Positions 24,109-49,554 of a stretch of 64,000 nucleotides of DNA are shown here, one piece after another; position 1 is the stretch's first letter, and each line of letters begins with the position of its first letter. A program made the translations under genes and the position numbers. The notes beneath the pieces are model-generated. The model saw nothing but the letters and a program-made list of their open reading frames with translations, was not told the DNA's origin and ran no database searches. This DNA comes from a virus. Lineage: Duplodnaviria > Heunggongvirae > Uroviricota > Caudoviricetes. Location: IMG/VR virus record IMGVR_UViG_3300045988_161152; one strand, 5' to 3'.

Positions 24109-24164
24109 ACTACAGGTGCCCACCAGCACATACAGAAAATGATTGTTTCCACATCAAGGAGATT

Positions 24165-24187
24165 TTAATGTTTCACTGAAACATTAA
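24165..24187. repeat. Perfect 23-bp palindrome TTAATGTTTCACTGAAACATTAA
   Basis: 11-bp arms around a central C; overlaps the stop of the small minus-strand ORF. Confidence 0.5.
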
Positions 24188-24321
24188 GTAAGCCAGTGCA
24201 TAATTCCATTTTTTACTGACCTTAAAAGCAAAATCAAAACGATGATGAGGATAATAGCCAGAATCTGGCTAATAATAGGCGCATCTAAAAATGCACTCAG
24301 GAACTGAAAAAAAGCGTTCAT
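24184..24321 (-). CDS. 45-aa single-pass membrane peptide
   Basis: MNAFFQFLSAFLDAPIISQILAIILIIVLILLLRSVKNGIMHWLT; AGGA about 10 nt upstream of the ATG; sits in an AT-rich non-coding island. Confidence 0.35.
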   Translation of the reverse strand: MNAFFQFLSAFLDAPIISQILAIILIIVLILLLRSVKNGIMHWLT

Positions 24322-25183: not shown

Positions 25184-25540
25184 TTATGACCGTAAATTAT
25201 TAGCGGATTTTAAGCCATATTCACCGTTGTAGAAATTACTCATGTTCCATTCATTAGGAAGTTCTTTTCTGTCCAATGTATAGTGGCGCACGATATAACG
25301 ATCTTCATCTTCTTCGATGGACAGGCGGACATAGCCAATGTGGATCACCGATACGGGCGGTGTTCGTATTGCATAGATGTCGCGGAGATATACCGGTAGC
25401 TCGACAAATGCATCAGGTGCATCTGTGATGCTCGTTTTTTCACAGTATTCATATAACGCATCGTTGATATCGTTAAGAGATTCATGATCGTATATTTCCA
25501 GGTAATTACCGCGATCGCGATGGTACTCGATTTTAGCCAT
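25184..25540 (-). CDS. Hypothetical protein, second gene of a two-gene minus-strand module
   Basis: 118-aa ORF; start abuts the stop of the upstream 194-aa gene. Confidence 0.55.
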   Translation of the reverse strand: MAKIEYHRDRGNYLEIYDHESLNDINDALYEYCEKTSITDAPDAFVELPVYLRDIYAIRTPPVSVIHIGYVRLSIEEDEDRYIVRHYTLDRKELPNEWNMSNFYNGEYGLKSANNLRS

Positions 25541-26125
25541 TCAAAATCCCCTGTTATCGTTTTGCATTTCTCTAATCCGGTTCAGAACTACTTCATGCTG
25601 GGCTTGGATAGCGGCTTTTTCGTTTTCAAGTCGGGCAATAGACATCTCTAATTCTTTGCTGTACCAGGCGAGTTGGGCCAGGTTCATCCGGTTGTGGTCG
25701 AGAGTTGGAGACACTTCGACGCGCTCCCTTTCTTCCTGCTTTAATGAGAAGAGATTCATCTCATCCCTAGAGGAAAATTCAGCAACAATTTCTTGTTGAT
25801 GATCCGGTCGCTGCGGCATCCTCGCCAGTATAAATGGCGGTTCTTTTGAAAACATGAATGTCGGTTCAGAACGTGTTTTCACCCATCTAGCCTGCTGTCT
25901 TTCGGCAAGTTCACAGGCTTCATCATAGTTATTTGCCAAACCAAGCACGGATGGGCGGTCCCACGCGCCACCATTCAGACAATAAACAACAATTTTCCCG
26001 TCATGTTCTGTAACCCCATAGGGATGGTCCCACCAGGCGTCCAGCTGAGCTTTAGAGCGTTTCTCGTTAGGAGTGCAGTCAAAATTTTTGGGCAATACAG
26101 GATCGAGAGGAATGCGATTAGGCAT
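25541..26125 (-). CDS. Hypothetical protein with C-terminal coiled coil
   Basis: 194-aa ORF transcribed divergently from humD. Confidence 0.55.
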   Translation of the reverse strand: MPNRIPLDPVLPKNFDCTPNEKRSKAQLDAWWDHPYGVTEHDGKIVVYCLNGGAWDRPSVLGLANNYDEACELAERQQARWVKTRSEPTFMFSKEPPFILARMPQRPDHQQEIVAEFSSRDEMNLFSLKQEERERVEVSPTLDHNRMNLAQLAWYSKELEMSIARLENEKAAIQAQHEVVLNRIREMQNDNRGF

Positions 26126-32910: not shown

Positions 32911-33119
32911 TATTGTGAGTCTGGCTGGTTAGTGGCCATGAGATATTCGATTGTGTCAGTGAGATCATCCAGGTCGTCTTGGGTGATGCGGTACTCCTGA
33001 TTGGATATCTTTGAGTAGTGTTCAGCAATGGCGCGGGCAGCGTCGGTTTCGGCAGGGTCTACAGATAAAGCGTTAGAGCAATGTCTAACGTCGTCGATGG
33101 TTGGTGGAATGAAAGCCAT
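32910..33119 (-). CDS. coi: C1 inactivator Coi
   Basis: 69-aa acidic protein immediately upstream of c1. Confidence 0.85.
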   Translation of the reverse strand: MAFIPPTIDDVRHCSNALSVDPAETDAARAIAEHYSKISNQEYRITQDDLDDLTDTIEYLMATNQPDSQ

Positions 33120-33358
33120 AATTATGCCTCACTGTATTGACAACACAGAGCCTGAAGCTCTGACCTACTGTTTCACCCATGATCCATGCTGGGGTAATCT
33201 AACAACATTGCGCTGTGTGTAAGATGAGCAATGCATAGCTGTAATGCCGTTGTATAAGGTTTCCCTGTTTGCTCATTTCCTTCTGAGCCGCTCTACAACG
33301 CTGAAGACACATTAAATAGTGAATCCAAAGTCGTATTACGAAACGGCGGCAAAACTAT

Positions 33359-33374
33359 AATTTATTAGAGCAAT
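33359..33374. promoter_or_regulatory. C1 operator
   Basis: AATTTATTAGAGCAAT, perfect reverse complement of ATTGCTCTAATAAATT. Confidence 0.65.
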
Positions 33375-33440
33375 TGTCAAACAACAATGAAAAACAATCC
33401 AGTTTTTGGCTGGTGGAGTGGGATTTTTCTCTCAAAATTT

Positions 33441-33457
33441 ATTGCTCTAATAATTCT
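33441..33457. promoter_or_regulatory. C1 operator
   Basis: ATTGCTCTAATAATTCT with overlapping AAATTTATT. Confidence 0.55.
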
Positions 33458-33500
33458 TGATTTTTATGCGCAGCTGGACGTAAACTCCTCTTCGGACCTA

Positions 33501-33534
33501 ATAACTTCGTATAGCATACATTATACGAAGTTAT
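33501..33534. other. loxP recombination site
   Basis: Exact ATAACTTCGTATA-GCATACAT-TATACGAAGTTAT. Confidence 0.98.
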
Positions 33535-33723
33535 ATTAAGGGTTATTGAATATGATCAATTTACCTGTAAATCCATACAGTTCAATACCTTAGCAGGTCA
33601 AATAGTGACCACTTGATCATTTGATCAAGGTTGCGCTACGTAAAATCTGTGAAAAATTGGCGGTGTTAGTCCTACAGATTTCGCGTAGCGCACTTAGCAC
33701 CACCAATCAATCAGAGGTGAAAA

Positions 33724-33945
33724 ATGGGATATTCAACTGCTAAAGTGTCCACTCATCTTGAGCTTGAGAAAAACCGTGGTTACTGGCGGGCAAAAGGGTT
33801 TGATCGTGATAGTTGCCAACTGTCATTATCGCGCGGTGAAGAGAAAATAGAACGCACGCGCGGTCGCTGGCGTTTCTATGACGAGAACCATAAACAGGTA
33901 AAGGCAGAGCCGATCCTGTACACTTTACTTAAAACCATTATCTGA
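33724..33945 (+). CDS. Hypothetical basic protein between loxP and cre
   Basis: 73-aa ORF with GAGGTGA RBS; fills the loxP-cre spacer. Confidence 0.35.
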   Translation: MGYSTAKVSTHLELEKNRGYWRAKGFDRDSCQLSLSRGEEKIERTRGRWRFYDENHKQVKAEPILYTLLKTII

Positions 33946-33952
33946 GTGTTAA

Positions 33953-34984
33953 ATGTCCAATTTACTGACCGTACACCAAAATTTGCCTGCATTACCGGTC
34001 GATGCAACGAGTGATGAGGTTCGCAAGAACCTGATGGACATGTTCAGGGATCGCCAGGCGTTTTCTGAGCATACCTGGAAAATGCTTCTGTCCGTTTGCC
34101 GGTCGTGGGCGGCATGGTGCAAGTTGAATAACCGGAAATGGTTTCCCGCAGAACCTGAAGATGTTCGCGATTATCTTCTATATCTTCAGGCGCGCGGTCT
34201 GGCAGTAAAAACTATCCAGCAACATTTGGGCCAGCTAAACATGCTTCATCGTCGGTCCGGGCTGCCACGACCAAGTGACAGCAATGCTGTTTCACTGGTT
34301 ATGCGGCGGATCCGAAAAGAAAACGTTGATGCCGGTGAACGTGCAAAACAGGCTCTAGCGTTCGAACGCACTGATTTCGACCAGGTTCGTTCACTCATGG
34401 AAAATAGCGATCGCTGCCAGGATATACGTAATCTGGCATTTCTGGGGATTGCTTATAACACCCTGTTACGTATAGCCGAAATTGCCAGGATCAGGGTTAA
34501 AGATATCTCACGTACTGACGGTGGGAGAATGTTAATCCATATTGGCAGAACGAAAACGCTGGTTAGCACCGCAGGTGTAGAGAAGGCACTTAGCCTGGGG
34601 GTAACTAAACTGGTCGAGCGATGGATTTCCGTCTCTGGTGTAGCTGATGATCCGAATAACTACCTGTTTTGCCGGGTCAGAAAAAATGGTGTTGCCGCGC
34701 CATCTGCCACCAGCCAGCTATCAACTCGCGCCCTGGAAGGGATTTTTGAAGCAACTCATCGATTGATTTACGGCGCTAAGGATGACTCTGGTCAGAGATA
34801 CCTGGCCTGGTCTGGACACAGTGCCCGTGTCGGAGCCGCGCGAGATATGGCCCGCGCTGGAGTTTCAATACCGGAGATCATGCAAGCTGGTGGCTGGACC
34901 AATGTAAATATTGTCATGAACTATATCCGTAACCTGGATAGTGAAACAGGGGCAATGGTGCGCCTGCTGGAAGATGGCGATTAG
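33953..34984 (+). CDS. cre: Tyrosine recombinase Cre
   Basis: 343 aa; MSNLLTVHQNLPALPVD N-terminus and the catalytic R-H-R-Y region of Cre. Confidence 0.97.
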   Translation: MSNLLTVHQNLPALPVDATSDEVRKNLMDMFRDRQAFSEHTWKMLLSVCRSWAAWCKLNNRKWFPAEPEDVRDYLLYLQARGLAVKTIQQHLGQLNMLHRRSGLPRPSDSNAVSLVMRRIRKENVDAGERAKQALAFERTDFDQVRSLMENSDRCQDIRNLAFLGIAYNTLLRIAEIARIRVKDISRTDGGRMLIHIGRTKTLVSTAGVEKALSLGVTKLVERWISVSGVADDPNNYLFCRVRKNGVAAPSATSQLSTRALEGIFEATHRLIYGAKDDSGQRYLAWSGHSARVGAARDMARAGVSIPEIMQAGGWTNVNIVMNYIRNLDSETGAMVRLLEDGD

Positions 34985-36154: not shown

Positions 36155-36343
36155 TAAATATATTATTTTTAATGATAAATGATTGACAACTGACAAGTGA
36201 CTTCAGTCAGAATCATCACACGCCCGGTACGGATGGATCCCTTTTCAAATATTCCATGGACGGCACAGTCTGAGTACCGGGCGCTACCTTCAGTTGTATT
36301 GCTAAGCCGCCGCTGGTGGCTTTTCTTTTTTGTAGGGGGCGCT

Positions 36344-36985
36344 ATGGATAAGAAAATATGCGTTGTTTCGATGAGCGTCGGCAAACCGGCGTCAATGACT
36401 GCTGCATGGATCAATAACGAGCTGATAATGGCTGAGCGGACCAGCTACCCTGAACGCCGCCGCGATATGGAACTCCAGCTGCTGCGCGAATTGCGAGAAA
36501 AAGAGGAAAAGGGTTTTATCGTGCTGGTGGAAGAGGAAAACAGCTTTATTACTGGACGAGTTGGCCAGCGTGTAAGGTTGCGTGATCCCTTCATGAACGG
36601 TAGACCGGTACTGATTGAAGCAATGCAGATTTACAAGGAATTAGAACGCCAGAAAGCGATCAAGTTACCGCGCAAGGAATCCGGCAAATACATCCTCCAC
36701 CAAAGCATCTTCGATTCCGAACATGACAAAAAAGGCGATGAATTTTTCAACATCAACTGGAGCGAAATAACGACAGAGCACGTTCTGACGTTGTTATGCT
36801 GCTTCGCAACGGAATACAACAACGTTGCAAACTCCGACTACATCAGGGCAATGGCTGGAGAAGTTGAGCCACGCCAGGAACCATCGTTACTAAGCCCACT
36901 GATTAACATAATTCGCGGCACACAGAGACTTGCGGAAAAAAGCGTTCCACATGGAATCTTAACTGGAAAGGGAAACTATTTTTAA
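36344..36985 (+). CDS. mat: Hypothetical protein in the P1 mat position
   Basis: 213 aa from ATG 36344 with AGGGGG RBS; symbol from recalled P1 order. Confidence 0.5.
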   Translation: MDKKICVVSMSVGKPASMTAAWINNELIMAERTSYPERRRDMELQLLRELREKEEKGFIVLVEEENSFITGRVGQRVRLRDPFMNGRPVLIEAMQIYKELERQKAIKLPRKESGKYILHQSIFDSEHDKKGDEFFNINWSEITTEHVLTLLCCFATEYNNVANSDYIRAMAGEVEPRQEPSLLSPLINIIRGTQRLAEKSVPHGILTGKGNYF

Positions 36986-37026
36986 CGACCTGAGCGCCAC
37001 TTCTTTCAGGTCGTGTTGGATGTCAT

Positions 37027-37051
37027 AAAAAGGAGGTTTTCACCTCCTTTT
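37027..37051. terminator. Bidirectional terminator between mat and res
   Basis: AAAAAGGAGG-TTTTCA-CCTCCTTTT. Confidence 0.55.
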
Positions 37052-37060
37052 AAACTGGAA

Positions 37061-39973
37061 TTATGGTAATGCGCTCTTGATTAACTGATAAATATCATCA
37101 TTAGCAAACTGCGTTTTGAATTCAACTTTAACAGACTGACTTATTTGATTGAAAAGCGCCTGGGCATGTTCAATTTTCTTTTTTTCTTCAAGCCGTAAAC
37201 TATCCTTACTATCTACGTTTTTTGTTTCAATGATAAAGTTAAGATAATCACCTTCTGCTGTTTTTACAACATAAGCAAAATCGGGTGAGTAAGTGTATCC
37301 ACCAGCTACCGGGATCTTAATAGAATTCTTCGGTATCTTTGAAAAAACAACAACAGACTGGATCTCTCTATCTGTTATATTACGCCTTTCAAGCTCTGAA
37401 TCATAAAAAACTTCTTCAAAAAGATAAGTATCTAATGGTGCTTTTGAATTATCCTGTAATACACCAAGATCACTTGATAATACCTCGTCTAGAGGCTTAC
37501 CATCAGCATTTGTGAACTTTGTGGGATGAATTGAACCCGAAATCAAATTATATCCGAGGCTGAATTTATTAAACGAATTGTTCAACAAATACTTACTAAA
37601 ACCAGATTTAATTTTTCTGATTGTTTGAATATTCAGGTATTCAGTGATATTAATAGTGTCTTTTATATCACAAAAAACTTTATGTAAAGTATCGTGTTTA
37701 ACAAAAATAGTCTGTGATAAGTTATCGAGAAACTCTCGATAACTCATTGTGTTTAGCTTAGCAAAGTCATCGTCATCACTAACAATGCTTTTCGACATTG
37801 CCATATCATTGTGGATGTAAATTTTATCAATGCGAGTATGAACGCCTGATTTGGTAAATCGTTCTGTTTCTTCGAGCATGAATGACTTGAAAATGGATAA
37901 AAACTCATTTTCACTGTTTATTTTGTACTCAATCACCGCTTTTTGATTGATTAATTCCCATAGTTCTTTCAGCTCACTGAACTTACCAACACGCATTTTA
38001 GTGCGTCTTTTTCCATCAGTAGCTTTTTTGATTTTACCTGGTTTCACTCCTATAGGGAATGCTGCTGGATATTTGGATTTTAAGCGGCTGTAGGCATCTG
38101 AATCTTTGAAATTATCATTGTCATCAATGATTTCATCATTGAAAAGTTCATTCATTAGTGCTCTGGATGAAAGCTCAGGATACTGAGCCCTGATTTGTTC
38201 CTTAAGCTCTTGAGTAAACTTACTTGGAACCCTTTCTTTGAAAGAACTCTCATTGACCTCTTTAACAAGTGAGTCAACAAAATCCTTTTCTGTAAAATCG
38301 ACATAATATTTAAGGGTAAAATTGCGGTCTTTCACTCGACACATGTATTCATTCACAGGAAGACGCAAACCGCGCCCTACCTCTTGAAGCTTGGATGTGG
38401 TACTACCGCTCGAACGGAGCTTACAGATCTGAAAGACATTAGGATTATCCCATCCCTCACGCAACGTCCATTTGGAGAAAATGAAACGACGTGGATTATC
38501 TAAAGACAGCAAAAGCTCTTTGTCATGAAGGATTTCGTTGATTTCCTTCTCGATTTTATCATCCTTATCACTGTTATCTTTTGAAAAATAACCGCCATGA
38601 ACGGAAGATATATCTTTAACTGTTTTTTCAAGATAGTTACTATAAAACTCATCTTTTTCTATTTTTAACAGTTCATTAGCTTCTGCCAAAACATATTCTT
38701 CGAACTTAGCTTTCAAACTTCCGGCAATATTATTACCGTCACGATAACCTTCAATATCATCAATAAAGAAAAGAGTAAGAGGCTTTATGCGTGGCCTTTG
38801 TGTCAGAAACTCTTTTTCTAACTTAAAGTGTTCTTTGATAGCTTTCCTCATCATGCTGTCAGCAAGTGTCTGATCGTAAGAATAGGGGTTTATTGAGCAA
38901 CCAATTTTTAGCTCAATACCATTACTCAACACTACTGTATTCTTGCCTAAGGCATCAAGAGTTAAATCGTGAATAGCACTATGTGTCTTAGATAGAGATT
39001 CACCTTTTGTTAACTTAAATAAAGTTTTCTTGTTATTTTCATTTAGCTCAAATGTAACTTCTTCCCCATCAGATTTAATGAACTTTAGGTTGGCGTCACC
39101 ATCACCAACAATATCCTCAATGTACGCATCAATACCTTTAACAAGGTCTTCATTAAATGCATCCACAGCTGTAAGTCGATAAACTAAATTCTTATAGCCT
39201 TCACTAAAGGTCGCACCGTAGCGGATAATATATTGAGCATTAAACTTCTCTATATTTTCCCATGTCTTTTTACCAGTAGGAAATTTATGTGGTTCATCAA
39301 TGATAATGAATGGTTTTACCGCACCAAGAGCTGAAAAGGGAGAATCAAAATGATTGTCAAGCAAGCCAACATCATAAGTGGAATTTAAATTCTTAGAGTG
39401 AATCATTCCCGTGTTAATAACAAGAACGTGTATATATTTCTTATTGAAATTACTAGCTTCAACAAAATCATGTATAGCTTGAGGCATATACGATTTTGTG
39501 CTTTTACCGGCATTTTTCTGACTTTCAACAACGTAAGTCTTTATTTCACGCTCATAATCATCTCTAAAGTGTTCTTTTAACGCATCGCTTTTCAAAAAGT
39601 TCACTGTTCCAGCTTTGATCGATAGAGTAGGAACAATAATGATAAACTTATTAATGCCAAATGATTTGTTCAGATCAAAAATTGTTTTAGTGTAGGTATA
39701 CGTTTTACCTGTACCTGTCTCCATAGAAACATCAATTACGTTGCTTCTAGCATCGTAATTATTTTTTACATGTTCAATACCATTGAGTTCCTGAACTTTT
39801 TTTATATTTTTATAGTATTGCTGTTCAGTAAGCCGTAATTCTGGATTAACTAACAGGCGAATAGAAACATTATCCTCCTGATGAGATGTCGCGGAAACAA
39901 AAACGTTCATCACCGCATCGACACCTGCTTTCTGATGCGGTAAGTTCTTTTCGAATGTGAACCCTTTTGACAT
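37061..39973 (-). CDS. res: Type III restriction enzyme Res subunit (SF2 helicase/endonuclease)
   Basis: 970 aa; helicase motifs (GTGKTYT, DEPH); AT-rich; immediately downstream of mod. Confidence 0.9.
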   Translation of the reverse strand: MSKGFTFEKNLPHQKAGVDAVMNVFVSATSHQEDNVSIRLLVNPELRLTEQQYYKNIKKVQELNGIEHVKNNYDARSNVIDVSMETGTGKTYTYTKTIFDLNKSFGINKFIIIVPTLSIKAGTVNFLKSDALKEHFRDDYEREIKTYVVESQKNAGKSTKSYMPQAIHDFVEASNFNKKYIHVLVINTGMIHSKNLNSTYDVGLLDNHFDSPFSALGAVKPFIIIDEPHKFPTGKKTWENIEKFNAQYIIRYGATFSEGYKNLVYRLTAVDAFNEDLVKGIDAYIEDIVGDGDANLKFIKSDGEEVTFELNENNKKTLFKLTKGESLSKTHSAIHDLTLDALGKNTVVLSNGIELKIGCSINPYSYDQTLADSMMRKAIKEHFKLEKEFLTQRPRIKPLTLFFIDDIEGYRDGNNIAGSLKAKFEEYVLAEANELLKIEKDEFYSNYLEKTVKDISSVHGGYFSKDNSDKDDKIEKEINEILHDKELLLSLDNPRRFIFSKWTLREGWDNPNVFQICKLRSSGSTTSKLQEVGRGLRLPVNEYMCRVKDRNFTLKYYVDFTEKDFVDSLVKEVNESSFKERVPSKFTQELKEQIRAQYPELSSRALMNELFNDEIIDDNDNFKDSDAYSRLKSKYPAAFPIGVKPGKIKKATDGKRRTKMRVGKFSELKELWELINQKAVIEYKINSENEFLSIFKSFMLEETERFTKSGVHTRIDKIYIHNDMAMSKSIVSDDDDFAKLNTMSYREFLDNLSQTIFVKHDTLHKVFCDIKDTINITEYLNIQTIRKIKSGFSKYLLNNSFNKFSLGYNLISGSIHPTKFTNADGKPLDEVLSSDLGVLQDNSKAPLDTYLFEEVFYDSELERRNITDREIQSVVVFSKIPKNSIKIPVAGGYTYSPDFAYVVKTAEGDYLNFIIETKNVDSKDSLRLEEKKKIEHAQALFNQISQSVKVEFKTQFANDDIYQLIKSALP

Positions 39974-39975
39974 GA

Positions 39976-41916
39976 TTAGTTCCTTACCACTAAATCTAAC
40001 TCAATAGATTTTTTGTTAGCATAACTTTTTAGCGCCTCATTAAGCTCCCTTTGTTTTGCACTTTCAAAGTTACAACCATAAAACACGACTTTGTTTGGGG
40101 CAAAATCTTCATCTGAATCCAGCTTTTGGAGCAACGCTTTCAATGCTTCGCTAGTAAAATTAGGTGCAATCAAATACAGACGGCCATTGCAAAAGTGTGC
40201 TGTATAGCCACTAAGATCAACATCTTCAATAGGTGTTGTTAACAAGCTACCATCATATACACACCATGTAGTCAATAGGGCATCATACTGTTCAGGCGTT
40301 AATACCGCATCATCAAAGAATGTATGATTAGTGAGCGTAAGTTCAGACTCAACTTTTGCTCTAAAGTCATCAATAGTATGAATCACTTTGAAACCTATTT
40401 TAGCCGCATTATCACTTGTGGTTGTGCTTTTTTTAAATACCTCCTGTATCCTTTTTTTTGTTATTTCAAAAATAGATCTATAGCCAAGAGAATAGGCATT
40501 CTTTGTTTTATTTATAACTTCATCTTTTTGTATGCATATAAAATTCCTACAGCCTGAATCTTTTTCATTTAAATATGCAACAGCTTCTGCTGTCGTACCA
40601 GAGCCAGCAAAAAAGTCAAGAACTAATGAATCCTTTTTTGTTCCTATTTTTACAAGATCGGTTATAAGAGGAACAGGTTTTGGTCCTTCAAATAATTTTG
40701 CACCTAAAAGATTTTTAAGCTCAGTTGTCGCCGTGCTTGTACTATATTCAGGTTTATACCAAATTGATTTTGGCTTTTTAGTTGGTAGCTCTCCAAGAGC
40801 AGGCCGCTGTTTTTTATAGATATTTTTACCATCTTTTATATCTATTACTATTAGATTATAAAACTCATCATTTATTTTTTTCTTTCCCCACGACCATGAA
40901 AGCTCTTCACCCGTAGGGCTTACTGGGTAAAGTACATAGTCATCTTCGTTAAGAGGTTTATCATCATCTGTTACATAAACCTTATTTTCTGAATTGATGA
41001 ATACCGGAAACCAACCTTTTGGTCTTGATTTTCTAGAAGCATCTTGGCCAGTACGCTTTAATGTATCAGCTCTTTTAAATAGCCCATATTCATCTTCATC
41101 CCACTCTTTTTCAACTTCACTTTCATCAATATCGAATTGCCCCAAACTACAAACATCTTTGTTTTTAGCGTATACATATATATATTCATGCGTATCTGAA
41201 AAGCCAAAGTTATCATGATTGCCTTTGAGATTCATGATTGTAGGGAGTTTTGCAACAAAATTACCTTGCCCAAATACTTCGTCGCATAATAATCCCAACT
41301 GTTTATCTTCGTTATCGTCTATGGAGATGAATATTACTCCATCCTCTTTTAAAAGTTCACGTGCAATATAAAGACGAGGATAAATGAATGTCAGCCATGC
41401 ACTATGACTGCTTGAACCCTTGGTGGTAAATTCAAGTATGCGGTTAGCCTCATCAAGCTCGATACCTGCCAGTTCAGAAAGCTGTTCTGGTGTAAACTTG
41501 CGATCATCGTTATAGACGAATCCATCTTTACCCGTATTGTATGGTGGGTCAATGTAAATCATATTCACCTTTTCAGCATAAGCATTAACCATATGCTTCA
41601 ATACTTCGAGGTTATCCCCTTTGATTAACAGGTTTTGACTGTTCTTGTTCTCTTCTTGTTGGTTATGTGTTTTATCTTCTGCCAACAACGTTTTCGGTGG
41701 TAGATTGGCCAACAAACGGGCATAAGATTTACCCAGCCAGTTTAAACTGTATGATTCTTTAGAGAGTTCAACCTCCGATGCTCTAATAATCTCAAGCAAT
41801 TTTTCTTGAATGAAGGCTCCGTTTTTATCAAAACACTGTGGGAAATTAGCTTTCAACACAGCCAGTTGCTTGCTGTTAGCCGTTTCTACTTCGGAAAAAA
41901 TCGTTTCTTTTTTCAT
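39976..41916 (-). CDS. mod: Type III N6-adenine DNA methyltransferase Mod subunit
   Basis: DPPY catalytic motif and FFAGSGTT SAM motif; start set at MKKETIF (646 aa) from recalled Mod length; track ORF extends to 41937. Confidence 0.85.
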   Translation of the reverse strand: MKKETIFSEVETANSKQLAVLKANFPQCFDKNGAFIQEKLLEIIRASEVELSKESYSLNWLGKSYARLLANLPPKTLLAEDKTHNQQEENKNSQNLLIKGDNLEVLKHMVNAYAEKVNMIYIDPPYNTGKDGFVYNDDRKFTPEQLSELAGIELDEANRILEFTTKGSSSHSAWLTFIYPRLYIARELLKEDGVIFISIDDNEDKQLGLLCDEVFGQGNFVAKLPTIMNLKGNHDNFGFSDTHEYIYVYAKNKDVCSLGQFDIDESEVEKEWDEDEYGLFKRADTLKRTGQDASRKSRPKGWFPVFINSENKVYVTDDDKPLNEDDYVLYPVSPTGEELSWSWGKKKINDEFYNLIVIDIKDGKNIYKKQRPALGELPTKKPKSIWYKPEYSTSTATTELKNLLGAKLFEGPKPVPLITDLVKIGTKKDSLVLDFFAGSGTTAEAVAYLNEKDSGCRNFICIQKDEVINKTKNAYSLGYRSIFEITKKRIQEVFKKSTTTSDNAAKIGFKVIHTIDDFRAKVESELTLTNHTFFDDAVLTPEQYDALLTTWCVYDGSLLTTPIEDVDLSGYTAHFCNGRLYLIAPNFTSEALKALLQKLDSDEDFAPNKVVFYGCNFESAKQRELNEALKSYANKKSIELDLVVRN

Positions 41917-42067
41917 ATCCATTTTAAACCAGATCATTTAGCAACAAAGCGCCGCCTCCCCAGCCCGTTAGAGCCAGAAGTTGTGGCACTATCACTATCT
42001 ATATGTTTGAAGAATCGTGCTTCTTTGAGCGATGCTCGGTGAGCAAACAGCCATAATTTGGGGAAGT

Positions 42068-42316
42068 TTAATCCGCATTGAGAAGCAATGCATTATCTAT
42101 GATGATCTGCTCCCATTCTTCGAATGCCCGATCGCGGACGCCCTGGGGAACACTGTTAGTTTTGAAATCGACCACCGTCCGCCATTTCCCGTCCGGGCGG
42201 TACATGCGCAGAGCTTTACTTCCCCCTTCCCTGCGCACCTCAACGTTATGCTTATCAGCAAACTCTTGTAATGCTCGTAGCGTCCCATGCTTTACTGTGT
42301 AGTATCGCTTTTTCAA
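42068..42316 (-). CDS. lxc: C1 co-repressor Lxc (Bof)
   Basis: 82-aa ORF between mod and ulx, as in P1. Confidence 0.6.
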   Translation of the reverse strand: MKKRYYTVKHGTLRALQEFADKHNVEVRREGGSKALRMYRPDGKWRTVVDFKTNSVPQGVRDRAFEEWEQIIIDNALLLNAD

Positions 42317-42753
42317 GTTTTCTCTCCAGCCTGTGCCAAGGCTTCAACTTCCAAATCGTAAGACTCAAACTCATAGTCCTGGTCGTCAACTTCTTCAGGC
42401 ACTGGCAGTAAATGCCAGGCTGAGTATATCTGACCATTATCAAAACGCTCCTGGCTGTAGAGCGTCGCGGCTATGAGTGTTAGCGCCGGGCGGTCATAAC
42501 GGTAAATTTTGCGAACGTCACGGTCAACGAGACGACCGAAATTACCATAACCGCGCTCCAGTAATAATTTTTTAATTTCCGGCCAGTATGGGCCATAGCT
42601 GCGGTACAGGCGGGGATTTTTCAGTAATCGCCCGCGTAGCCCTGACAGGAAGAAATCAACGTATTCGTCTTCTGTCTTTCCTAACAATGCCGTACGCAGT
42701 ACCGCCTCAAGATATGTTTTATTCGGTTTTATTGTATCAGATAGTGTGGCCAT
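42313..42753 (-). CDS. ulx: Ulx protein, downstream of darB
   Basis: 146-aa ORF between darB and lxc. Confidence 0.6.
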   Translation of the reverse strand: MATLSDTIKPNKTYLEAVLRTALLGKTEDEYVDFFLSGLRGRLLKNPRLYRSYGPYWPEIKKLLLERGYGNFGRLVDRDVRKIYRYDRPALTLIAATLYSQERFDNGQIYSAWHLLPVPEEVDDQDYEFESYDLEVEALAQAGEKT

Positions 42754-42786: not shown

Positions 42787-45700
42787 TTATGCGTATTGTT
42801 GGATGACGGCCAGAACGTCCGCCACGTTGTGTTTTGTCTCGATAATCCACCAGTTACCCGGGAAATCGCTGTTCTTCGCCTTCGCTGGCAGCCAGCGAGC
42901 GCCGAATTTCGCCTTGATTGCGTCTTTCGCACGGAAAAGAACGCCTTTCATGCCTGAGGCTTCCTGAAGCCCAAATACCTCGCCAGCGGCGAATTTTGGT
43001 GCGTACATCATCTTCAGGTCGGCGGTGGATACGCGATAATTCAGACCAAGAGACTGAGCTATGCTGGTGGCATCACCCTGTATTGATGATAACTCTTCTT
43101 GTTTCTCGTTTCTGGCGGCAATTTCTTCCTCCGTGATGTTGCCAAGGGCCAGGTTTATCCGATCAGCGTCGGCCTGTTTCTCTTCATCGGTGCGTCCGGC
43201 AAGAACCGTGTTAACTCTCTGCAATATCTCCACATGATTCTTGCGCATGCTGAGCAATTCCGGCGTAACCTCGTTAAGATCCACCAGCCCAAGGATGGCA
43301 AGGTCGGAAAACATTGATACCAGGTTGTAGGTCATGCGATAGCTGAGTTGACCATAGGCTGATGGCAACTTCACCGCATCCATTTGATAGGCATCCATAA
43401 ATTTAGAGCCGTCGTTTACGACATCCGCAATTGCCGGTGTGATTTTTCCTGTGGTGGCGGCCTCCCTGATTGCTGTTACCCACGATTGAGTCAGCGCGGC
43501 GACTGCATGATTCAGATTGGCTTTCCGTTCTGCTGCAATGCGCGCACTTGCTGCGTCCATTGCCTGCTTGATCTCGTCTTTATTGCTGTAAATGCCAATG
43601 GTGCCAAACTGTGCTGTGGTGATCTCATAATCTGACGCCCGGAACTCATTGGTACCGAAAATGGCATTGGTGACTTCAAGTTCAGAATCCCCGTTACGAG
43701 TAGACCCCTGGCTTGTTTTTTCCGGCATTCTGGCGATCGCATCCGCTATTTTCTCCTGAATTGCTTCAGGGGATAGCGTATCTCCGTATGACGCGATTAC
43801 ATCGCCATAATTGGAGCCAAACAATTCAACCAGGAATGTTTCTGCCGAACGGATCTGGCGGTTATTCCCTTCCGACATCATACCAAGCACCCATTTTGCA
43901 ATTGACGACTTCAGCGCGCCGTCACGGCGATCCGGGTAAACCGCATGCTTCAGTGGGTCCGTATAGGTGCCAACAAAATCAATGCTATAGCCTGACTCTG
44001 TAGTCTGAACGCCGTATGAGTCAGTGATTTTGATCATGCCGCGCTGCTGGAAACGGTAGAAATCGTCACAGGAAATGATGTCGTTAATCCCGGCGATGGA
44101 GACGCCACCACTGATTTTCTGCATAACAGCATCTTCATCGGGAGTTACATCCACCTGTTTATCCAGCGTCTTCACATCCCAGTTACCCGATTTGGTGCCT
44201 TTGAAGGTAAAGATGATCTCCACGTCTGCGCGCTGGCTGTCGAAGTCCAGCGACTTAATGCGAACGATATCACCGGCACAATCATAGTATTGGCCTACAC
44301 GCCATGAGCGATCGCCGATAACAAGGAACTCATTCGCATGGTTAACCAGATCAGGATCAACATCCAGAATGCCTTTATTTATTGCATCCTCCACCAGCGG
44401 GCGCAGGCGTTTGATATCCGTCGCGGCCTTCTGAGTACGGTTCAATAATTTCTCATAGCGGGAGATGGCCTGAGAGATATTAGCCTTGCGCTGAATGGCG
44501 CTTTTCAACGACGCGCGATACTGTGCTAACAACATACGGTCTGTGTGATGGACGCTACCCCAGCGGGCTTTCCAGTCTGCGTTATCAGCTGCTTTGGCCA
44601 TTACCGCCTGTTTGAATTTGGCGACGTCGGCGGTGGTCTTTTCAAGTTCCGCTTTGCTTCGCTCCAATTCAGCGGTAAGTACCTCCACATCCTCACCAGC
44701 TGCGTGCTGCGCCTTGATGTAGTTCTGAAGGTCGATAGTAGCCTGTTCTTTCTGGCGAGCGCGTTTCGCAGCTTTCGCCTTATCCATTTGAACCTGCATC
44801 ATTACCAGACGTTCGCCGTCATCCTTCGCGGTATACATCTGCATTTCGATCATGTCATTGGCGTCGGCGTTCTCCATTTCTGACTTATCTGAACGGAGGA
44901 TATCGGAGATCCAGCCTGCTTTACGCTTCAGCGTCTTCAGTCGGTATTCATCGAAAGACCCCTTGCCGCAGTAGTAGTGAACGCGAACGCTTGCACGGTT
45001 GGAGCCAACTCGTGCACCGCGACCGTTACGTTGTGCGATACTGGCTGGTGTCCACGGCAACGTCAGGTGGTGGATATCCGTCGTTCCTCGATGCAGGTTG
45101 ATACCCACCTCTGCCTTTTTGTTGCAGATGATGATCGGAGTCCGGCCCTCCTGGAAGTCGGCTGCAATCTTTTCCAGACCGCCCAACGACATTTCATTTT
45201 GCTGCGCGATATAGGCGTCATACAGAGCCATTTGCTCGTTGTATTTCGCTATCTGTGCATCTGTTGGTTCATCCGGTAGCTCTTTCGGCGGTTTAACCGC
45301 TTTCAGTTTCTTACCGGTTTTACCTGCCTCGGCAACCGTCTGAGCATTCAGGATCCCCACCTTTGAAGGTTCAAGGTTTAGAGCATTGCAGATAATGCGC
45401 TTGAGCTTCTGGTGCTGCGTTTTTTCATCGGTGAAGATGATTTGCTTACCTTCCGGGAAAAACTCCTTCAGCGTGGCGATCAGCTTCGCGTATTTCGGCG
45501 TAACGGGGTGAGTTACGGTCTGTTCGTCAATGCCAAACCTGGCCAGGCGATTATTCACTTCCTGCTCAAATGCTTCCGGTACCTGCAACTGAATAAACTC
45601 GCCCTTATCTATCAGGGAGTATTGCGATTGCTGCGTGATCGAATCATCACTGTCGTCGTCTTCGCTGGTGGCTTGTTTAGGCAAACTGTCCGCCAGCTGC

Positions 45701-48700
45701 TGCACCGCATCGGCGTACTCCGGCAGGAAACGATAGGTGATCCTGCGATAGTACAGGTCCATGTCAGTACATACGCGGTCCATATCCCTGATTATTGAGA
45801 AGATCGGACGGGCTTTCTCGTGCTCAATCACGCCGTCTTCATTGACCGAGGTCGTTACGCCATTGTTGGCTTTGGCTGCCGCTTCCGCCTGCTGACGCAA
45901 TTCTTCATACGCCGCCAGTTGTTCTTCCGTAAGTGGTGCATCCTGCTGGTGTTCGTCCAGTTCCGGGATCTCCACGGTATCCTTAACGTCTTCCGCCGTT
46001 TTAAGCGTTGTCCAGCGATGGAATATGCCGCGCAGCGCATCAAGGTTTTCAAAGCCCACCAGCGCCATTTTTTCTTCAACTTCACCGCTGATTTTCTGTA
46101 CCGTTTCCAGCCTGGTCTTGCCGAAGAATTTAACGAAGTCATCAGGACCGTAGATCCCCATCTTCTGCCAGTATTCCTTCGGCAGCACATGAGAAAGCAT
46201 GTTGTATGCATCGATCGGGGTGTTAACGACTGGCGTTGCAGTCAGGAGAACCGGTCCGCGCCCACCATTCTTTTTCATCAGGTACGCGTTTTTAATTGCC
46301 ATATCCCGCGCCGATTGCGCCACCGCGCTGGTGGGCAGATAGGCCAGTTGTGACGCTTCGCGACCATTTTTATAGCTATTGCGGTAGTTGTGACCTTCGT
46401 CAGCGATCACACTATCGAAGCCCATATCCTCAAAGTACGGATACTTCTCTGCTTTTTCGGTGCCGGTATCTGAATACTCCGACAATACCCGGCGACGCGC
46501 GGCCTCTTTGCGGTGGGAGTCGGAGTCCATTGCGCTGGCTACGCGCCCGGCGGCAACGAAGTCATAAAGCATATCCTGTGCATGCTCATCTACGGTGTCA
46601 TCACGTAGCGGAATGCGGGCGTATTGTTCTTTGGTAAACACGACTGCACGGTAATTTGAGTGCGGGATCGCGTTCATCCGCGCCGTGATAGTGGCTTCAT
46701 CTGCCAGTTTTAGGGCATCGCGCATAACTGGAGTGCCATCAGTACCAAGAACAGGTTTACCGTTCTCATCGAGCACCGGCACCTGGCGAATCTGATCGCC
46801 ATCCATCAGCACATCAAGACCGACGAACAGGTAGTTACTGAATGCCTCTTCACTCAGGAATTCTTTTGCTTCGTAATACCAGTTTTCCAGCACTGATTTA
46901 GGCACTACATACGCAGTACGGGTGGAGCGACCGTTCTCATAGTTGAACGCCTCAAGCGCCAGCGCGGTCGTAGTTTTACCCAGCCCGGTGCCGAAGCCCA
47001 GGATGCCGCGCCCATCTTCGGACAGTCGGCGCACTTCGCTATTCTGGTAATCAAATGGCTGGCGCTTACCGCTTAATCCCTTCAACCCAAGCGGATCGCC
47101 AGAGTGTTCATACGGGATATTGCTATTGAACACATCGTTGTATTTGGCAACCAGTTCATCGTAGCGATCGTGCGTCTTGATCCACTTATTGAACTGGTCC
47201 TCAAGCAGTGCCATCAGCTCGCGGTAGCCGTTCGCCGTCGCGCTATCTTTGCCACCGATACGCGCACCATTGAGATACTTTTCCAGCTGTGCCGGGAACC
47301 CGGTCGCGTTTTCACCTGATTTACGGTCCCACTCGTAGCGGATCTCGCCTGTTTCTTTATCCTTGCGCTGGACGACACCGTATCGGTGCCCGACGAACAG
47401 ACCATCACCACCGTGATAGGTGTCAGAAACCATTTCGTCGCCTTCCAGCTGCACTGACTGCACATAGCGAAGATCCGGATAGCCGTTTTCCTGCAAAAAT
47501 TCCAGAATGACGGAACGGTCGAACCAACGGCTATTGAGCTTAAAGCGGATATTCTCTGCTGGCGTCTTGATGCGCTTCTCTTCGATCGCTGCCAGCTGAT
47601 TAAGGACGTTGTTCTTTACTGGACCGTCGGGGAGTGTGGCAAGGAATTCCTGTTTTGGTGCCACTATCTCGTTAATGTCTCCGCTGGTGGCGCGGGCGAA
47701 CGGAACAATCCCGCCATACGGTGAAACCGCAATGCCAGGGGTGCTGGCCAATAAATTAAGCAACTCGTCATCACTGGCTGGCAGTTCGCCGGTAAACGCA
47801 AGGCGGAAATCATCGAGCTGGATTGGATCGCGAGTGAGATCACTGTAGAGATAACGCAGGGTGTCCTGATAGCTGGTGGAGTCATAACTGGCGCTGGAAT
47901 CATGCGTAACCAGTTTTCCTGTCAGCTCGTCAGAAATAGTGCCATCCAGCTTAATTGCACCACGGAAAGCAAACCAGGCGCGCGCACCGCTCCCCGATAA
48001 TTTCGCTATCGGACCGCGACCGGGGTTACCAAAACGGTCAATCTCTGCCTGCAAACGGGATACCAGAGAAAGGCGCTGCTGTTCGATTTGTTCAGCACTA
48101 TGCCCGGCGGCCTTCATGTCCTGATATTCAATTAACATCCGGCCAATCATCGCCCCGCGATACAAGCGTTCACGGTATTTTTCAGGCTGGCTGTTAATCC
48201 AGTCCACCAGCTGCACCATATCGTCGCTGATTGATGTGGTGTACTTATCGCGGACATTTGCCATCTGGGTAAATGTCATACCGAGACGGCCTTCTGTTGT
48301 AGTCAGGTTACGCTGAAGAGCCTCCCAGCTGTCCGCGCCATAACTGGCAACATCAATCTTCAGCTCCTTCCCTGCATCAGATTCAATCCAGCGACCACCA
48401 GCATATTTTTGCCATACGCCATTAATCAGGCGCATTTCCCCTTCATCAACAACGTCTGCGGTCGGTGACGGTTCAGCCATATTGAGCAAAGACCAGTCGA
48501 TACGACTTTCGAAACGATGAATCAGCTTCGCTTTAAGAGCCTGGTTATCAATCTGCCCGTCGGCACGAACCTCAATACGCCCCTGGAATCCCTTCTCCTG
48601 GGTGCCATGAACAAACCGGCGACCGTCCTTTTCAAACCACTTGCCAGAAATAAACGTTGGCCAAAGCACATTTGCCGATTCAAGAGTGCTTTCATCCACC

Positions 48701-49554
48701 AGGGGGATTTTCTCAGCCATCTCTGCCGGATGTTTGCGCATCAGCACCACATCAACGACTGTACTGGTCCCGTTTGCGTCAAAAGTACCGGTAGGCAAGC
48801 GGTGAGCACCAAGAAATTCAGCTTTCCGTGATAGGCGCAGGCGTAACCGCTTCATGTTTGAACCTGAAACAATGGACGGCGGCACAATCACGCACATGAA
48901 TCCGCCTGGCTTTATCTTGTCCAGCATGCGGAGCATGAAGTAAGAACCCATGTCCGTTTCTTCTGCGTAAGGCTTATCGATGTTGCGTGTGTTATCACGA
49001 CCACCGAACGGAACGTTACCCACAACATGGTCGAATGAATCGTTAGGCGTGCTTACAGCCAGTTGTTCGAACGGAGAAATCTGTACGCTGTCTTCCGGGT
49101 GCAACAGCTGGTTTATACGACCGGAAACACTGCTGATCTCAGTCGCGGTCATCACCGTACCAACCGGTTTTGTCTCATTAAAAACGCCGGTTCCCGCCGA
49201 TGGTTCCAGAGTGTTACCTACGTCCGCGCCGTAGAGCTTCATGATCTCCCAGACACCTTCAGCGATCGGCTTTGGTGTGTAATATTCGGAGACGGACCCG
49301 CCAATGCCGCCTTCGCCGGTGTACCCAGCCAGGATCTGGCGCTGTTCATCTGTCAGTGTCGCGCCGTCCACCAGCGAATTAAGCAAATCTATCGCCTTCT
49401 GATTCGCCTCCCGGCGTAGTCGGTCATAGCTTTTGCCTTCCACCTTTTCCACGCCGTATCTAATCGGCGCTCGGTGAGATGTTATTGCCCTAATGTATTT
49501 CAATATTTCGCTGACACTTGAACAGCGAAACACCCCTATAGATAGCTTGTTCAT
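42787..49554 (-). CDS. darB: Antirestriction protein DarB (MTase plus DExH helicase fusion)
   Basis: 2255 aa; N6-MTase-like VGNVPFG and helicase ADEGHNYRNS motifs. Confidence 0.9.
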   Translation of the reverse strand: MNKLSIGVFRCSSVSEILKYIRAITSHRAPIRYGVEKVEGKSYDRLRREANQKAIDLLNSLVDGATLTDEQRQILAGYTGEGGIGGSVSEYYTPKPIAEGVWEIMKLYGADVGNTLEPSAGTGVFNETKPVGTVMTATEISSVSGRINQLLHPEDSVQISPFEQLAVSTPNDSFDHVVGNVPFGGRDNTRNIDKPYAEETDMGSYFMLRMLDKIKPGGFMCVIVPPSIVSGSNMKRLRLRLSRKAEFLGAHRLPTGTFDANGTSTVVDVVLMRKHPAEMAEKIPLVDESTLESANVLWPTFISGKWFEKDGRRFVHGTQEKGFQGRIEVRADGQIDNQALKAKLIHRFESRIDWSLLNMAEPSPTADVVDEGEMRLINGVWQKYAGGRWIESDAGKELKIDVASYGADSWEALQRNLTTTEGRLGMTFTQMANVRDKYTTSISDDMVQLVDWINSQPEKYRERLYRGAMIGRMLIEYQDMKAAGHSAEQIEQQRLSLVSRLQAEIDRFGNPGRGPIAKLSGSGARAWFAFRGAIKLDGTISDELTGKLVTHDSSASYDSTSYQDTLRYLYSDLTRDPIQLDDFRLAFTGELPASDDELLNLLASTPGIAVSPYGGIVPFARATSGDINEIVAPKQEFLATLPDGPVKNNVLNQLAAIEEKRIKTPAENIRFKLNSRWFDRSVILEFLQENGYPDLRYVQSVQLEGDEMVSDTYHGGDGLFVGHRYGVVQRKDKETGEIRYEWDRKSGENATGFPAQLEKYLNGARIGGKDSATANGYRELMALLEDQFNKWIKTHDRYDELVAKYNDVFNSNIPYEHSGDPLGLKGLSGKRQPFDYQNSEVRRLSEDGRGILGFGTGLGKTTTALALEAFNYENGRSTRTAYVVPKSVLENWYYEAKEFLSEEAFSNYLFVGLDVLMDGDQIRQVPVLDENGKPVLGTDGTPVMRDALKLADEATITARMNAIPHSNYRAVVFTKEQYARIPLRDDTVDEHAQDMLYDFVAAGRVASAMDSDSHRKEAARRRVLSEYSDTGTEKAEKYPYFEDMGFDSVIADEGHNYRNSYKNGREASQLAYLPTSAVAQSARDMAIKNAYLMKKNGGRGPVLLTATPVVNTPIDAYNMLSHVLPKEYWQKMGIYGPDDFVKFFGKTRLETVQKISGEVEEKMALVGFENLDALRGIFHRWTTLKTAEDVKDTVEIPELDEHQQDAPLTEEQLAAYEELRQQAEAAAKANNGVTTSVNEDGVIEHEKARPIFSIIRDMDRVCTDMDLYYRRITYRFLPEYADAVQQLADSLPKQATSEDDDSDDSITQQSQYSLIDKGEFIQLQVPEAFEQEVNNRLARFGIDEQTVTHPVTPKYAKLIATLKEFFPEGKQIIFTDEKTQHQKLKRIICNALNLEPSKVGILNAQTVAEAGKTGKKLKAVKPPKELPDEPTDAQIAKYNEQMALYDAYIAQQNEMSLGGLEKIAADFQEGRTPIIICNKKAEVGINLHRGTTDIHHLTLPWTPASIAQRNGRGARVGSNRASVRVHYYCGKGSFDEYRLKTLKRKAGWISDILRSDKSEMENADANDMIEMQMYTAKDDGERLVMMQVQMDKAKAAKRARQKEQATIDLQNYIKAQHAAGEDVEVLTAELERSKAELEKTTADVAKFKQAVMAKAADNADWKARWGSVHHTDRMLLAQYRASLKSAIQRKANISQAISRYEKLLNRTQKAATDIKRLRPLVEDAINKGILDVDPDLVNHANEFLVIGDRSWRVGQYYDCAGDIVRIKSLDFDSQRADVEIIFTFKGTKSGNWDVKTLDKQVDVTPDEDAVMQKISGGVSIAGINDIISCDDFYRFQQRGMIKITDSYGVQTTESGYSIDFVGTYTDPLKHAVYPDRRDGALKSSIAKWVLGMMSEGNNRQIRSAETFLVELFGSNYGDVIASYGDTLSPEAIQEKIADAIARMPEKTSQGSTRNGDSELEVTNAIFGTNEFRASDYEITTAQFGTIGIYSNKDEIKQAMDAASARIAAERKANLNHAVAALTQSWVTAIREAATTGKITPAIADVVNDGSKFMDAYQMDAVKLPSAYGQLSYRMTYNLVSMFSDLAILGLVDLNEVTPELLSMRKNHVEILQRVNTVLAGRTDEEKQADADRINLALGNITEEEIAARNEKQEELSSIQGDATSIAQSLGLNYRVSTADLKMMYAPKFAAGEVFGLQEASGMKGVLFRAKDAIKAKFGARWLPAKAKNSDFPGNWWIIETKHNVADVLAVIQQYA

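Follow-up and report, generated by a model that had tools for sequence, protein, structure and literature searches.

An AT-rich block between mat and lxc of a P1-like element corresponds to the EcoP1I type III restriction-modification operon

How does a block of markedly AT-rich DNA come to lie between the genes mat and lxc, and what does it specify? The question was addressed in a window of 64,000 nt (the whole stretch of DNA that was analysed), for which a sequence-only reading had proposed a horizontally acquired type III mod–res cassette whose specificity was treated as open. The features of the locus are collected in Table 1.

Composition and identity of the block

The G+C content of the block (positions 36986–42021) is 35.6%, compared with 48.9% for the remaining window, which bears out the earlier claim that it is AT-richer than the flanking genes; the values for the individual genes are 34.7% (res) and 36.0% (mod). 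In the 195 5-kb windows that do not overlap the block, the mean G+C is 48.9% (sd 1.9%) and the minimum 45.3%, the block thus lying ∼7 sd under them. At third codon positions the G+C fraction is 0.31 in res and 0.29 in mod, versus 0.58 in darB and 0.54 in mat. As a general point, low G+C is by itself no proof of foreign origin.

The DNA sequence of the block was compared with X06287, which contains the EcoP1I res and mod genes of phage P1; the two were 100% identical over 5,119 nt (window positions 36983–42101). Over 6.3 kb, identity was 99.8% to P1 and 99.6% to P7, and the backbone on both sides of the block showed 98.2–99.3% identity to the best phage records, with 80–100% of each flank covered. 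We consider it nearly certain (probability about 0.96) that the block represents phage P1's EcoP1I type III restriction-modification operon, here residing in a P1-like plasmid prophage; no evidence contradicting the identification was found. The DNA of the operon and its immediate flanks, the gene order, the sizes of the products (Mod 646, Res 970 aa), the motifs and the annotated promoters are the same in both, with no difference inside the operon, although the carrier backbone differs from that of reference P1. The enzyme and the locus are already known, X06287 being a sequence from 1988, and there is nothing new in the operon: EcoP1I and one other enzyme founded the type III class, and publications already cover the sequence, promoters, target site and mechanism of EcoP1I.

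Copies inactivated by insertion sequences exist elsewhere. In the sequenced P1 c1-100 mod749::IS5, the reference P1, IS5 interrupts mod at the point equivalent to that between window positions 41168 and 41169, whereas the window has no IS5 there; a Klebsiella plasmid copy bears an IS630-family element in res. That the cassette in the window might likewise be an inactive remnant is barely credible, however, given that neither ORF is truncated or interrupted, that no catalytic motif is missing, that there is no IS, and that the DNA, including the annotated promoters, is identical to that of the functional published operon.

Table 1. Features of the mat–lxc region, in window positions
Feature	Position	Strand	Description	Basis
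mat	36233..36985	+	left-flank backbone gene	P1 record
Second hairpin	36985..37014		stem about 10 bp, no T-run, directly 3′ of mat stop	folding
AT-rich inserted block	36986..42025		~5.04 kb, mat stop to short spacer before lxc stop	
Hairpin	37028..37051		AAAAGGAGGT-TTTC-ACCTCCTTTT, perfect 10 bp, 4-nt loop	folding
res	37061..39973	-	EcoP1I restriction subunit, SF2 helicase/ATPase + C-terminal PD-(D/E)xK nuclease, 970 aa	Pfam, 4ZCF chain C, PADLOC
Res nuclease motif	37220..37285	-	PD…ETK, aa 897-918	translation; inside RE_endonuc match
Res motif VI	38363-38386	-	QEVGRGLR, aa 530	translation
Res motif II	39287-39298	-	DEPH, aa 226	translation
Res helicase motif I (Walker A)	39701..39715	-	GTGKT, aa 87-91	translation
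mod	39976..41916	-	M.EcoP1I N6-adenine methyltransferase + specificity subunit, 646 aa	X06287 identity, Pfam, 4ZCF chain A
P1res promoter	40075-40103	-		P1 record annotation, offset +33517
P2res promoter	40408..40436	-	within mod	P1 record annotation, offset +33517
P3res promoter	40443-40469	-		P1 record annotation, offset +33517
Mod AdoMet-binding motif I	40591..40614	-	FFAGSGTT, aa 435-442	translation of coordinates
Mod target-recognition region	40717..41316	-	central variable part, aa 201-400	allele comparison
Mod catalytic motif IV	41539..41550	-	DPPY, aa 123-126	translation of coordinates
P1mod promoter	41967..41995	-	inside the block	NC_005856 feature table, offset +32318 checked on lxc
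P2mod promoter	42065-42093	-	in backbone, overlaps lxc stop	NC_005856 annotation mapped
lxc	42068..42316	-	right-flank backbone gene	P1 record

The two proteins and their target

As in other type III systems, mod directly precedes res on the same strand, and only 2 nt separate the mod stop from the res ATG. The first-ATG mod ORF extends over 39976–41937 (minus strand, 653 aa), with in-frame ATGs at 41922 and 41937 upstream of that at 41916; the latter, which renders a product of 646 aa, was the start chosen in the sequence-only reading and is also that of the P1 and P7 records and of the EcoP15I crystal sequence.

Mod matched the Pfam families N6_N4_Mtase (PF01555, 1e-42) and T3RM_EcoP15I_C (PF18273, 4e-34), the latter being a type III-specific C-terminal domain, and chain A of the EcoP15I structure 4ZCF (E = 4e-233). 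For Res, the matches were ResIII (4e-18) and RE_endonuc (4e-25, aa 849–954), and residues 1–970 aligned with chain C of 4ZCF (2008 bits). The PADLOC models MTase_III and REase_III covered the full length of Mod and Res, respectively. The Pfam and PADLOC matches to both proteins agree with the type III pair proposed earlier, and the DPPY, FFAGSGTT and SF2 helicase motifs cited in its support were all located by translating the exact coordinates. In Mod, DPPY lies N-terminal to FFAGSGTT with the variable recognition region in between, the arrangement expected of a type III Mod; a motif I placed C-terminal to DPPY is the order typical of beta-class methyltransferases. Res has SF2 helicase/ATPase motifs and, at its C-terminal end, a PD-(D/E)xK nuclease, as is characteristic of a type III Res.

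The target-recognition region had been described as the variable part of Mod in the P1 family, and the comparison of alleles agrees with this. Relative to the allele of the P1-like plasmid NZ_CP027443, Mod is 12–42% identical over aa 201–520 and 82–100% identical at both ends, the divergence from this allele reaching about aa 520 (position 40357); this divergent allele displays the mosaic long familiar from Mod proteins, in which conserved ends enclose a variable centre. EcoP15I (plasmid p15B; 4ZCF) belongs to the same mechanism class, and its Res aligns over all 970 residues. The N- and C-terminal thirds of its Mod are nearly identical to those in the window, whereas its centre (about aa 255–395) could not be aligned, the alignment being limited to aa 8–262 and 402–653 of the 653-aa ORF; the published targets are CAGCAG for EcoP15I and AGACC for EcoP1I (PMC3874151), AGACC also being given in PMC2962900. 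EcoP7 (phage P7, NC_050152) occupies the same site with the same layout and shows a few substitutions: its Mod has a single residue change, T560I, which lies outside the variable centre, and its Res is 99.6% identical.

The specificity of the enzyme in the window, in contrast to its earlier treatment as an open matter, is that of a known system. The whole of mod, recognition domain included, is 100.0% identical in DNA sequence to that of the characterised M.EcoP1I (X06287), and because of this identity to the published operon the recognition domain is that of EcoP1I. The sequence-only reading had held that it would fail if the recognition domain proved identical to that of a known enzyme and no compositional shift appeared; the identity was found, and so was the shift.

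Counting both strands, the window contains 62 copies of AGACC, compared with ∼119 expected from base composition, and AGACC is the rarest of the 30 five-mers of equal composition. Under a maximal-order Markov expectation the observed/expected ratio is 0.98 (rank 444 of 1024), and the idea that the element avoids its own target was rejected, this ratio providing no evidence of specific avoidance. A tandem-repeat scan for a phase-variation (phasevarion) tract found none in mod or its promoter; the sole tandem repeat, a 16–23-nt AT-rich array at 39797–39819, lies within res.

Expression signals and expected activity

The biochemistry and transcription of EcoP1I have been reviewed (PMC3874151) and are also treated in PMC2962900. 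In the window, mod would be transcribed from two tandem upstream promoters and res from promoters within mod, the amount of Res depending on that of Mod; a consensus promoter scan independently recovered P2res, as TTAAAA-17-GATAAT at 40436–40408. Res would work as an ATPase-nuclease that associates with Mod, so that unmodified incoming DNA containing two inversely oriented sites would be cleaved 25–27 bp from one of them after ATP-dependent communication between the sites. This is how the literature describes the identical enzyme, with an asymmetric site, a need for two inverted unmethylated copies, and ATP-dependent cleavage at 25–27 bp (PMC3874151). We infer from the intactness of its genes and from the sequence identity that EcoP1I would be active in this element, where its role would be to shield the lysogen, and hence the prophage, against other phages and foreign DNA.

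A bidirectional terminator had been placed on the res side. A hairpin bordered by an A-run and, on its opposite side, a T-run was indeed found there (37028–37051), between the converging stops of mat (36985) and res (37061). Its folding energies are −13.1 kcal/mol (plus strand) and −15.3 kcal/mol (minus strand), with z = −4.2 and −4.5, and no shuffled sequence folded as well. This hairpin is missing from the corresponding position in RCS47 and SJ46, and the P1 record contains no annotation for it. It is plausibly a bidirectional intrinsic terminator carried by the block, and is considered here as a candidate. A simple terminator scanner passed over this hairpin, the T-run probably being taken up into the extended stem; its weak points are a core stem of 6 bp (4 of them G-C) and a T-run of just 4–5 nt.

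The mat–lxc site in P1-like elements

The locus has already been named RD-1, a low-G+C hot-spot in which res-mod can be replaced by other genes (Venturini et al. 2019, PMC6906374). It was defined as P1 coordinates 3469–9749, and res-mod was described as a recent acquisition (PMC6906374); mapped onto the window, RD-1 corresponds to 36986–42067, which matches the block. The proposal of an acquired cassette is upheld by the existence of an empty site and by the different cargo of other P1-like elements. In RCS47, the mat–lxc gap measures 39 bp; similarity to the window stops at the mat stop codon and, in the empty-site alignment, picks up again near 42022–42028. On the right, lxc is followed by ulx and then darB (anti-restriction genes). 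The flanks are common to 747 P1-like plasmid records; only 62 of these contain res-mod (at least 80% query coverage), and 685 are without most of it.

To the published description of RD-1 the present survey adds seven types of replacement cargo (RelA/SpoT, SIR2, DUF4935, DUF2971, a YaaC pair, EAL and GNAT). Four of the seven (the RelA/SpoT of SJ46, SIR2, DUF4935 and DUF2971) matched PADLOC models of defence or candidate-defence systems, and the YaaC pair, EAL and GNAT cargos matched none; the RelA/SpoT protein at the site in phage SJ46 is probably CapRel. The final 80–160 nt of mat co-vary with the cargo type. An 86%-identical res-mod cassette was also found on unrelated AT-rich plasmids of Klebsiella and Salmonella (42–51 kb), in a backbone of 33% G+C.

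The 8 cargo blocks examined where the site is occupied, the seven replacement types among them, all have a low G+C content of 32–40%. This could mean site-specific selection rather than a shared donor pool, low G+C being a functional property of the site (related, for instance, to the binding of a silencing protein or to a regulatory need) and the genes being long resident in the P1 lineage. We regard this as very unlikely in view of the third-position G+C of res and mod relative to their neighbours, the empty site in RCS47, the unrelated genes found at the same place, the 86%-identical cassette in a different plasmid backbone, and the 100% identity of the cassette across backbones that are 1–2% apart.

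The comparisons point instead to acquisition, in which the cassette would be one of several AT-rich cargo blocks that can occupy the mat–lxc junction, and would come with a promoter (P1mod) and a predicted terminator hairpin of its own. The block has the deviant composition of an island, and in close relatives the junction is either empty or filled by another insert, but the block has none of the terminal repeats, integrase or transposase of a mobile one. Repeat searches and inspection of the alignments revealed only chance-length direct or inverted matches at its borders (e.g. 14 nt at 36933 and 41892, both within genes), and there is no recombinase gene among its ORFs. A transposon-like or integrase-mediated origin was rejected, the borders showing chance-length repeats only. 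As terminal repeats are absent, gain and exchange probably occurred by recombination in the conserved flanks and not via a transposase or integrase, a mechanism proposed from these absent repeats and from the patterns of flank divergence.

The cassette might owe its retention mainly to plasmid stabilisation, acting as an addiction module: cells losing the plasmid prophage would lose methylation, and residual Res would cut their chromosome. Indeed, res-mod has been counted with the 'plasmid addiction systems' of P1, to which importance for stable maintenance is ascribed (PMC6906374), and restriction-modification systems can spread selfishly in a poison–antidote fashion (PMC10879196); a direct test of post-segregational killing by EcoP1I was not found in the literature. 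The 685 flank-sharing plasmids that are without most of res-mod indicate, however, that it is not needed for maintenance; Mod-dependent Res levels should limit killing after loss, and what was originally and directly observed for this system was that P1 lysogens restrict incoming lambda (PMC3874151). An addiction role as the main reason for its retention therefore appears improbable.

It is possible, if rather doubtful, that the mat–lxc junction is a dedicated exchange slot holding one anti-phage module at a time, drawn from an AT-rich pool (∼35% G+C). These modules would be the type III restriction-modification, CapRel-like, SIR2, DUF4935 and DUF2971 systems and the uncharacterised YaaC-pair, EAL and GNAT genes; the unit swapped would include the last 80–160 nt of mat, recombination taking place inside mat and lxc with no dedicated recombinase. 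If this were true, the uncharacterised cargos (YaaC pair, EAL, GNAT) would qualify as candidates for new defence genes. Since RD-1 has already been described as a hot-spot, and P1-like elements as carriers of defence systems, novelty would be confined to the generalisation 'one slot, one defence module' and to these candidates.

With EcoP1I and its AT-rich variable locus both published, the discovery value is small, and the only part possibly worth further work is the occupation of this slot by other small, AT-rich genes of defence or candidate-defence type. The value for annotation is that EcoP1I is intact here, unlike in reference P1 with IS5 in mod. Lysogens of this element would therefore be expected to methylate AGACC and to restrict DNA that lacks the modification, which would be relevant to the use of such strains in transduction and transformation and to the reading of their methylomes.

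Gene content of the island and its identity with EcoP1I

The mod gene was found upstream of res on the minus strand, with the mod stop codon 2 nt from the res start; an ORF scan of the opposite strand of 37061-41916 returned no reading frame of comparable size. Translation of the exact coordinates recovered the DPPY and FFAGSGTT motifs of Mod and the helicase motifs of Res that the sequence-only reading had claimed, and its assignment of the pair to type III restriction-modification was shared by Pfam (Mod, N6_N4_Mtase at 1e-42 plus the type III-specific C-terminal domain at 4e-34; Res, ResIII at 4e-18 plus RE_endonuc at 4e-25) and by PADLOC (MTase_III for Mod and REase_III for Res, both matched full-length). 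Three in-frame ATGs, at 41937, 41922 and 41916, are candidate mod starts, and no ribosome-binding site was clear enough to separate them. The ATG at 41916 is the start used by both the P7 record and the crystal sequence of EcoP15I; a MDMKKE start was chosen by automated annotation for related mod alleles.

Features of the mod-res island (promoter positions are P1 record annotations mapped onto the window)
Feature	Position	Strand	Remarks
P2mod	42065-42093		in backbone, overlaps lxc stop; P1 record annotation
P1mod	41967-41995		within island; P1 record annotation
mod ORF	39976-41937	-	653 aa counted from first ATG
mod, alternative start	ATG 41916	-	646 aa, N-terminus MKKETIF
Mod DPPY	aa 123-126	-	translation of exact coordinates
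Mod FFAGSGTT	aa 435-442	-	translation of exact coordinates
P3res	40443-40469		P1 record annotation
P2res	40408-40436		P1 record annotation; independent consensus-scan match
P1res	40075-40103		P1 record annotation
res ORF	37061-39973	-	970 aa
Res helicase GTGKT	aa 87	-	translation
Res helicase DEPH	aa 226	-	translation
Res helicase QEVGRGLR	aa 530	-	translation
Res nuclease PD…ETK	aa 897-918	-	translation
Second hairpin, AAAAGGAGGT-TTTC-ACCTCCTTTT	37028-37051	both	perfect 10-bp inverted repeat

When 6.3 kb around the locus was used as a query, it was 100.0% identical to GenBank X06287, the phage P1 EcoP1I res and mod operon, across all 5,119 nt of that record (window 36983-42101), so that, judged by its sequence, the window Mod is M.EcoP1I itself. 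Identity of the whole query was 99.8% with the genome records of P1 and 99.6% with P7. The match to the P1 reference (P1 c1-100 mod749::IS5) was split in two because IS5 sits in its mod; in contrast to that sequenced reference, IS5 is absent from the equivalent point of the window (41168|41169), and mod is intact in the window, X06287, P7 and phi456. The P7 Mod differs from that of the window by one residue (T560I), and its Res is 99.6% identical.

The EcoP1I Mod recognises and methylates its site, and Res and Mod together cut unmodified DNA 25-27 bp from the site, given two inversely oriented sites whose communication requires ATP hydrolysis; two tandem promoters drive mod, one located inside mod drives res, and Res abundance depends on Mod (PMC3874151). 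The target of M.EcoP1I is given as 5'-AGACC-3', methylated at the internal adenine, in two papers (PMC2962900, PMC3874151). AGACC occurs 62 times on both strands of the whole window, about half the expectation from base composition, and is the rarest among 30 five-mers of identical composition. There is nonetheless no sign of specific avoidance, since the observed/expected ratio is 0.98 under a Markov expectation and shorter words thus account for the deficit. Three sites, all in the same orientation, lie within the island.

The sequence-only reading had placed the variation among P1-family elements in the target-recognition region, and the alignments agreed. In NZ_CP027443, a P1-like plasmid of E. 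coli, the same site is occupied by a type III pair whose Res is 94% identical to that of the window and whose Mod shows 82-100% identity over aa 1-200 and 521-646, versus 12-42% over aa 201-520. Relative to the solved EcoP15I structures, the window Res aligned end to end (2008 bits), and alignment of Mod was limited to its first ∼255 and last ∼250 residues. By these comparisons, the middle of Mod is the variable part.

Base composition and the mat-res boundary

The marked AT-richness reported from the sequence was borne out by a G+C scan. The block 36986-42021 has 35.6% G+C against 48.9% for the remainder of the window, and the five 1-kb bins of 37001-42000 range from 33 to 39%, compared with 42-54% in all other bins. 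The 5-kb windows clear of the block (n = 195) averaged 48.9% (sd 1.9%, minimum 45.3%); the shift is thus far beyond chance. Third-position G+C was 0.31 in res and 0.29 in mod versus 0.58 in darB and 0.54 in mat. Resolved to 200 nt, the fall in G+C starts at ∼36,950-37,000 and ends at ∼42,000-42,050. Milder dips at 24001-26000 (0.40-0.43) and 33001-34000 (0.42) may match further variable regions already published for P1-like elements.

The mat and res genes stop at 36985 and 37061, and two hairpins occupy the gap between them. The second has a G+C core between an A-run and a T-run, giving a stem plus U-tract when read from either strand, and has folding energies of -13.1 and -15.3 kcal/mol (z-scores -4.2 and -4.5; 0/200 shuffles folded as well). 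It was not among the calls of a terminator pattern scanner, probably because the extended stem uses up the T-run, and no terminator is annotated there in the P1 reference record. Of the bidirectional terminator proposed on the res side, the hairpin with its flanking runs therefore stands, while its function as a terminator is a reasonable prediction rather than an established element. Both hairpins are missing from relatives without res-mod, and are therefore part of the inserted block.

Alternative cargo at the mat-lxc junction

That the block is a horizontally acquired cassette, as had been proposed, is strongly supported by comparison of the junction across relatives. In phage RCS47 the site is empty, mat and lxc being 39 bp apart, and in SJ46 it holds one RelA/SpoT-family gene; similarity of the window to both ends at the mat stop codon and returns near 42022-42028, just ahead of the lxc stop. 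Among plasmids, the flanks were common to 747 records, but coverage of the query reached 80% or more in only 62 of them. Plasmid matches taken at even intervals along the ranking showed SIR2, YaaC (plus a second gene), RelA/SpoT, DUF4935, DUF2971, EAL, GNAT or KilAC genes in the slot, or nothing annotated. One example for each of six sampled types was compared together with SJ46; all the cargo blocks retrieved are AT-rich (32-40% G+C). PADLOC defence or candidate-defence models were matched by four cargos of this set: the SJ46 RelA/SpoT protein (PDC-S33, 7e-87), SIR2 (PDC-S25 and ThsA-like), DUF4935 (PDC-S34) and DUF2971 (PDC-S31). The SJ46 gene is probably CapRel^SJ46, an anti-phage toxin-antitoxin fusion encoded by that Salmonella phage (PMC9712102). 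No PADLOC model matched the YaaC pair or the EAL and GNAT proteins, which are possible, as yet uncharacterised, defence candidates.

Over the final 80-160 nt of mat (3' end, 36825-36985), the window, P1, P7 and NZ_CP027443, all type III carriers, are 99-100% identical to one another, but identity to elements whose site is empty or holds other cargo is just 53-74%; further upstream in mat, identity is mostly 89-100%. The end of mat thus seems to be part of the exchanged unit, and the pattern suggests that cargo is swapped by recombination inside mat and inside or close to lxc. No terminal repeats were found at the block, nor recombinase genes within it. Against its best phage matches, the window backbone reaches only 98.2-99.3% identity, with coverage of 80-100% for each flank, while the island is 100% identical to P1, in keeping with a cassette that backbones have recently shared.

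Unrelated plasmids of 42-51 kb from Klebsiella and Salmonella also carry a cassette, ∼86% identical in DNA. A single example was compared in detail, K. pneumoniae NZ_CP102554 (43 kb; cassette at 2992-7059 of the retrieved segment), in which Mod is 91% identical, recognition region included, and the surrounding backbone has 33% G+C, a hint that the composition of the cassette suits AT-rich plasmids better than P1. Its res is broken by an IS630-family element (ISEc33), the second case, after the P1 IS5, of insertion-sequence inactivation of the system.

The slot (36986-42067) adjoins two anti-restriction genes, ulx (42313-42753) and darB (42787-49554, 2255 aa), which puts defence next to counter-defence on the element. 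In NZ_CP027443 (6419-7171 of the retrieved segment), a portal gene follows lxc in place of ulx and darB, which appear to have been deleted or rearranged.

Relation to described P1 variation

The system is the already known EcoP1I, and the island as originally described brings nothing new. Venturini et al. 2019 (PMC6906374) defined five hot-spots of variation at loci of low G+C, among them RD-1, which spans P1 3,469-9,749 and holds res-mod together with IS5; they cite the P1 genome paper for res-mod as a recent acquisition. Type III restriction-modification, CapRel, dGTPase and PrrC are listed among the defences of P1-like phage-plasmids in a 2025 preprint (10.1101/2025.09.12.675607), and phage-plasmids often swap defence systems, restriction-modification above all (Pfeifer et al. 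2024; PMC10879196). Added here is only a sharper picture of the slot, through its borders, the uniformly AT-rich cargo, the co-varying mat end and the PADLOC matches; of further interest are the uncharacterised cargos in the same slot, as candidate new defence genes.
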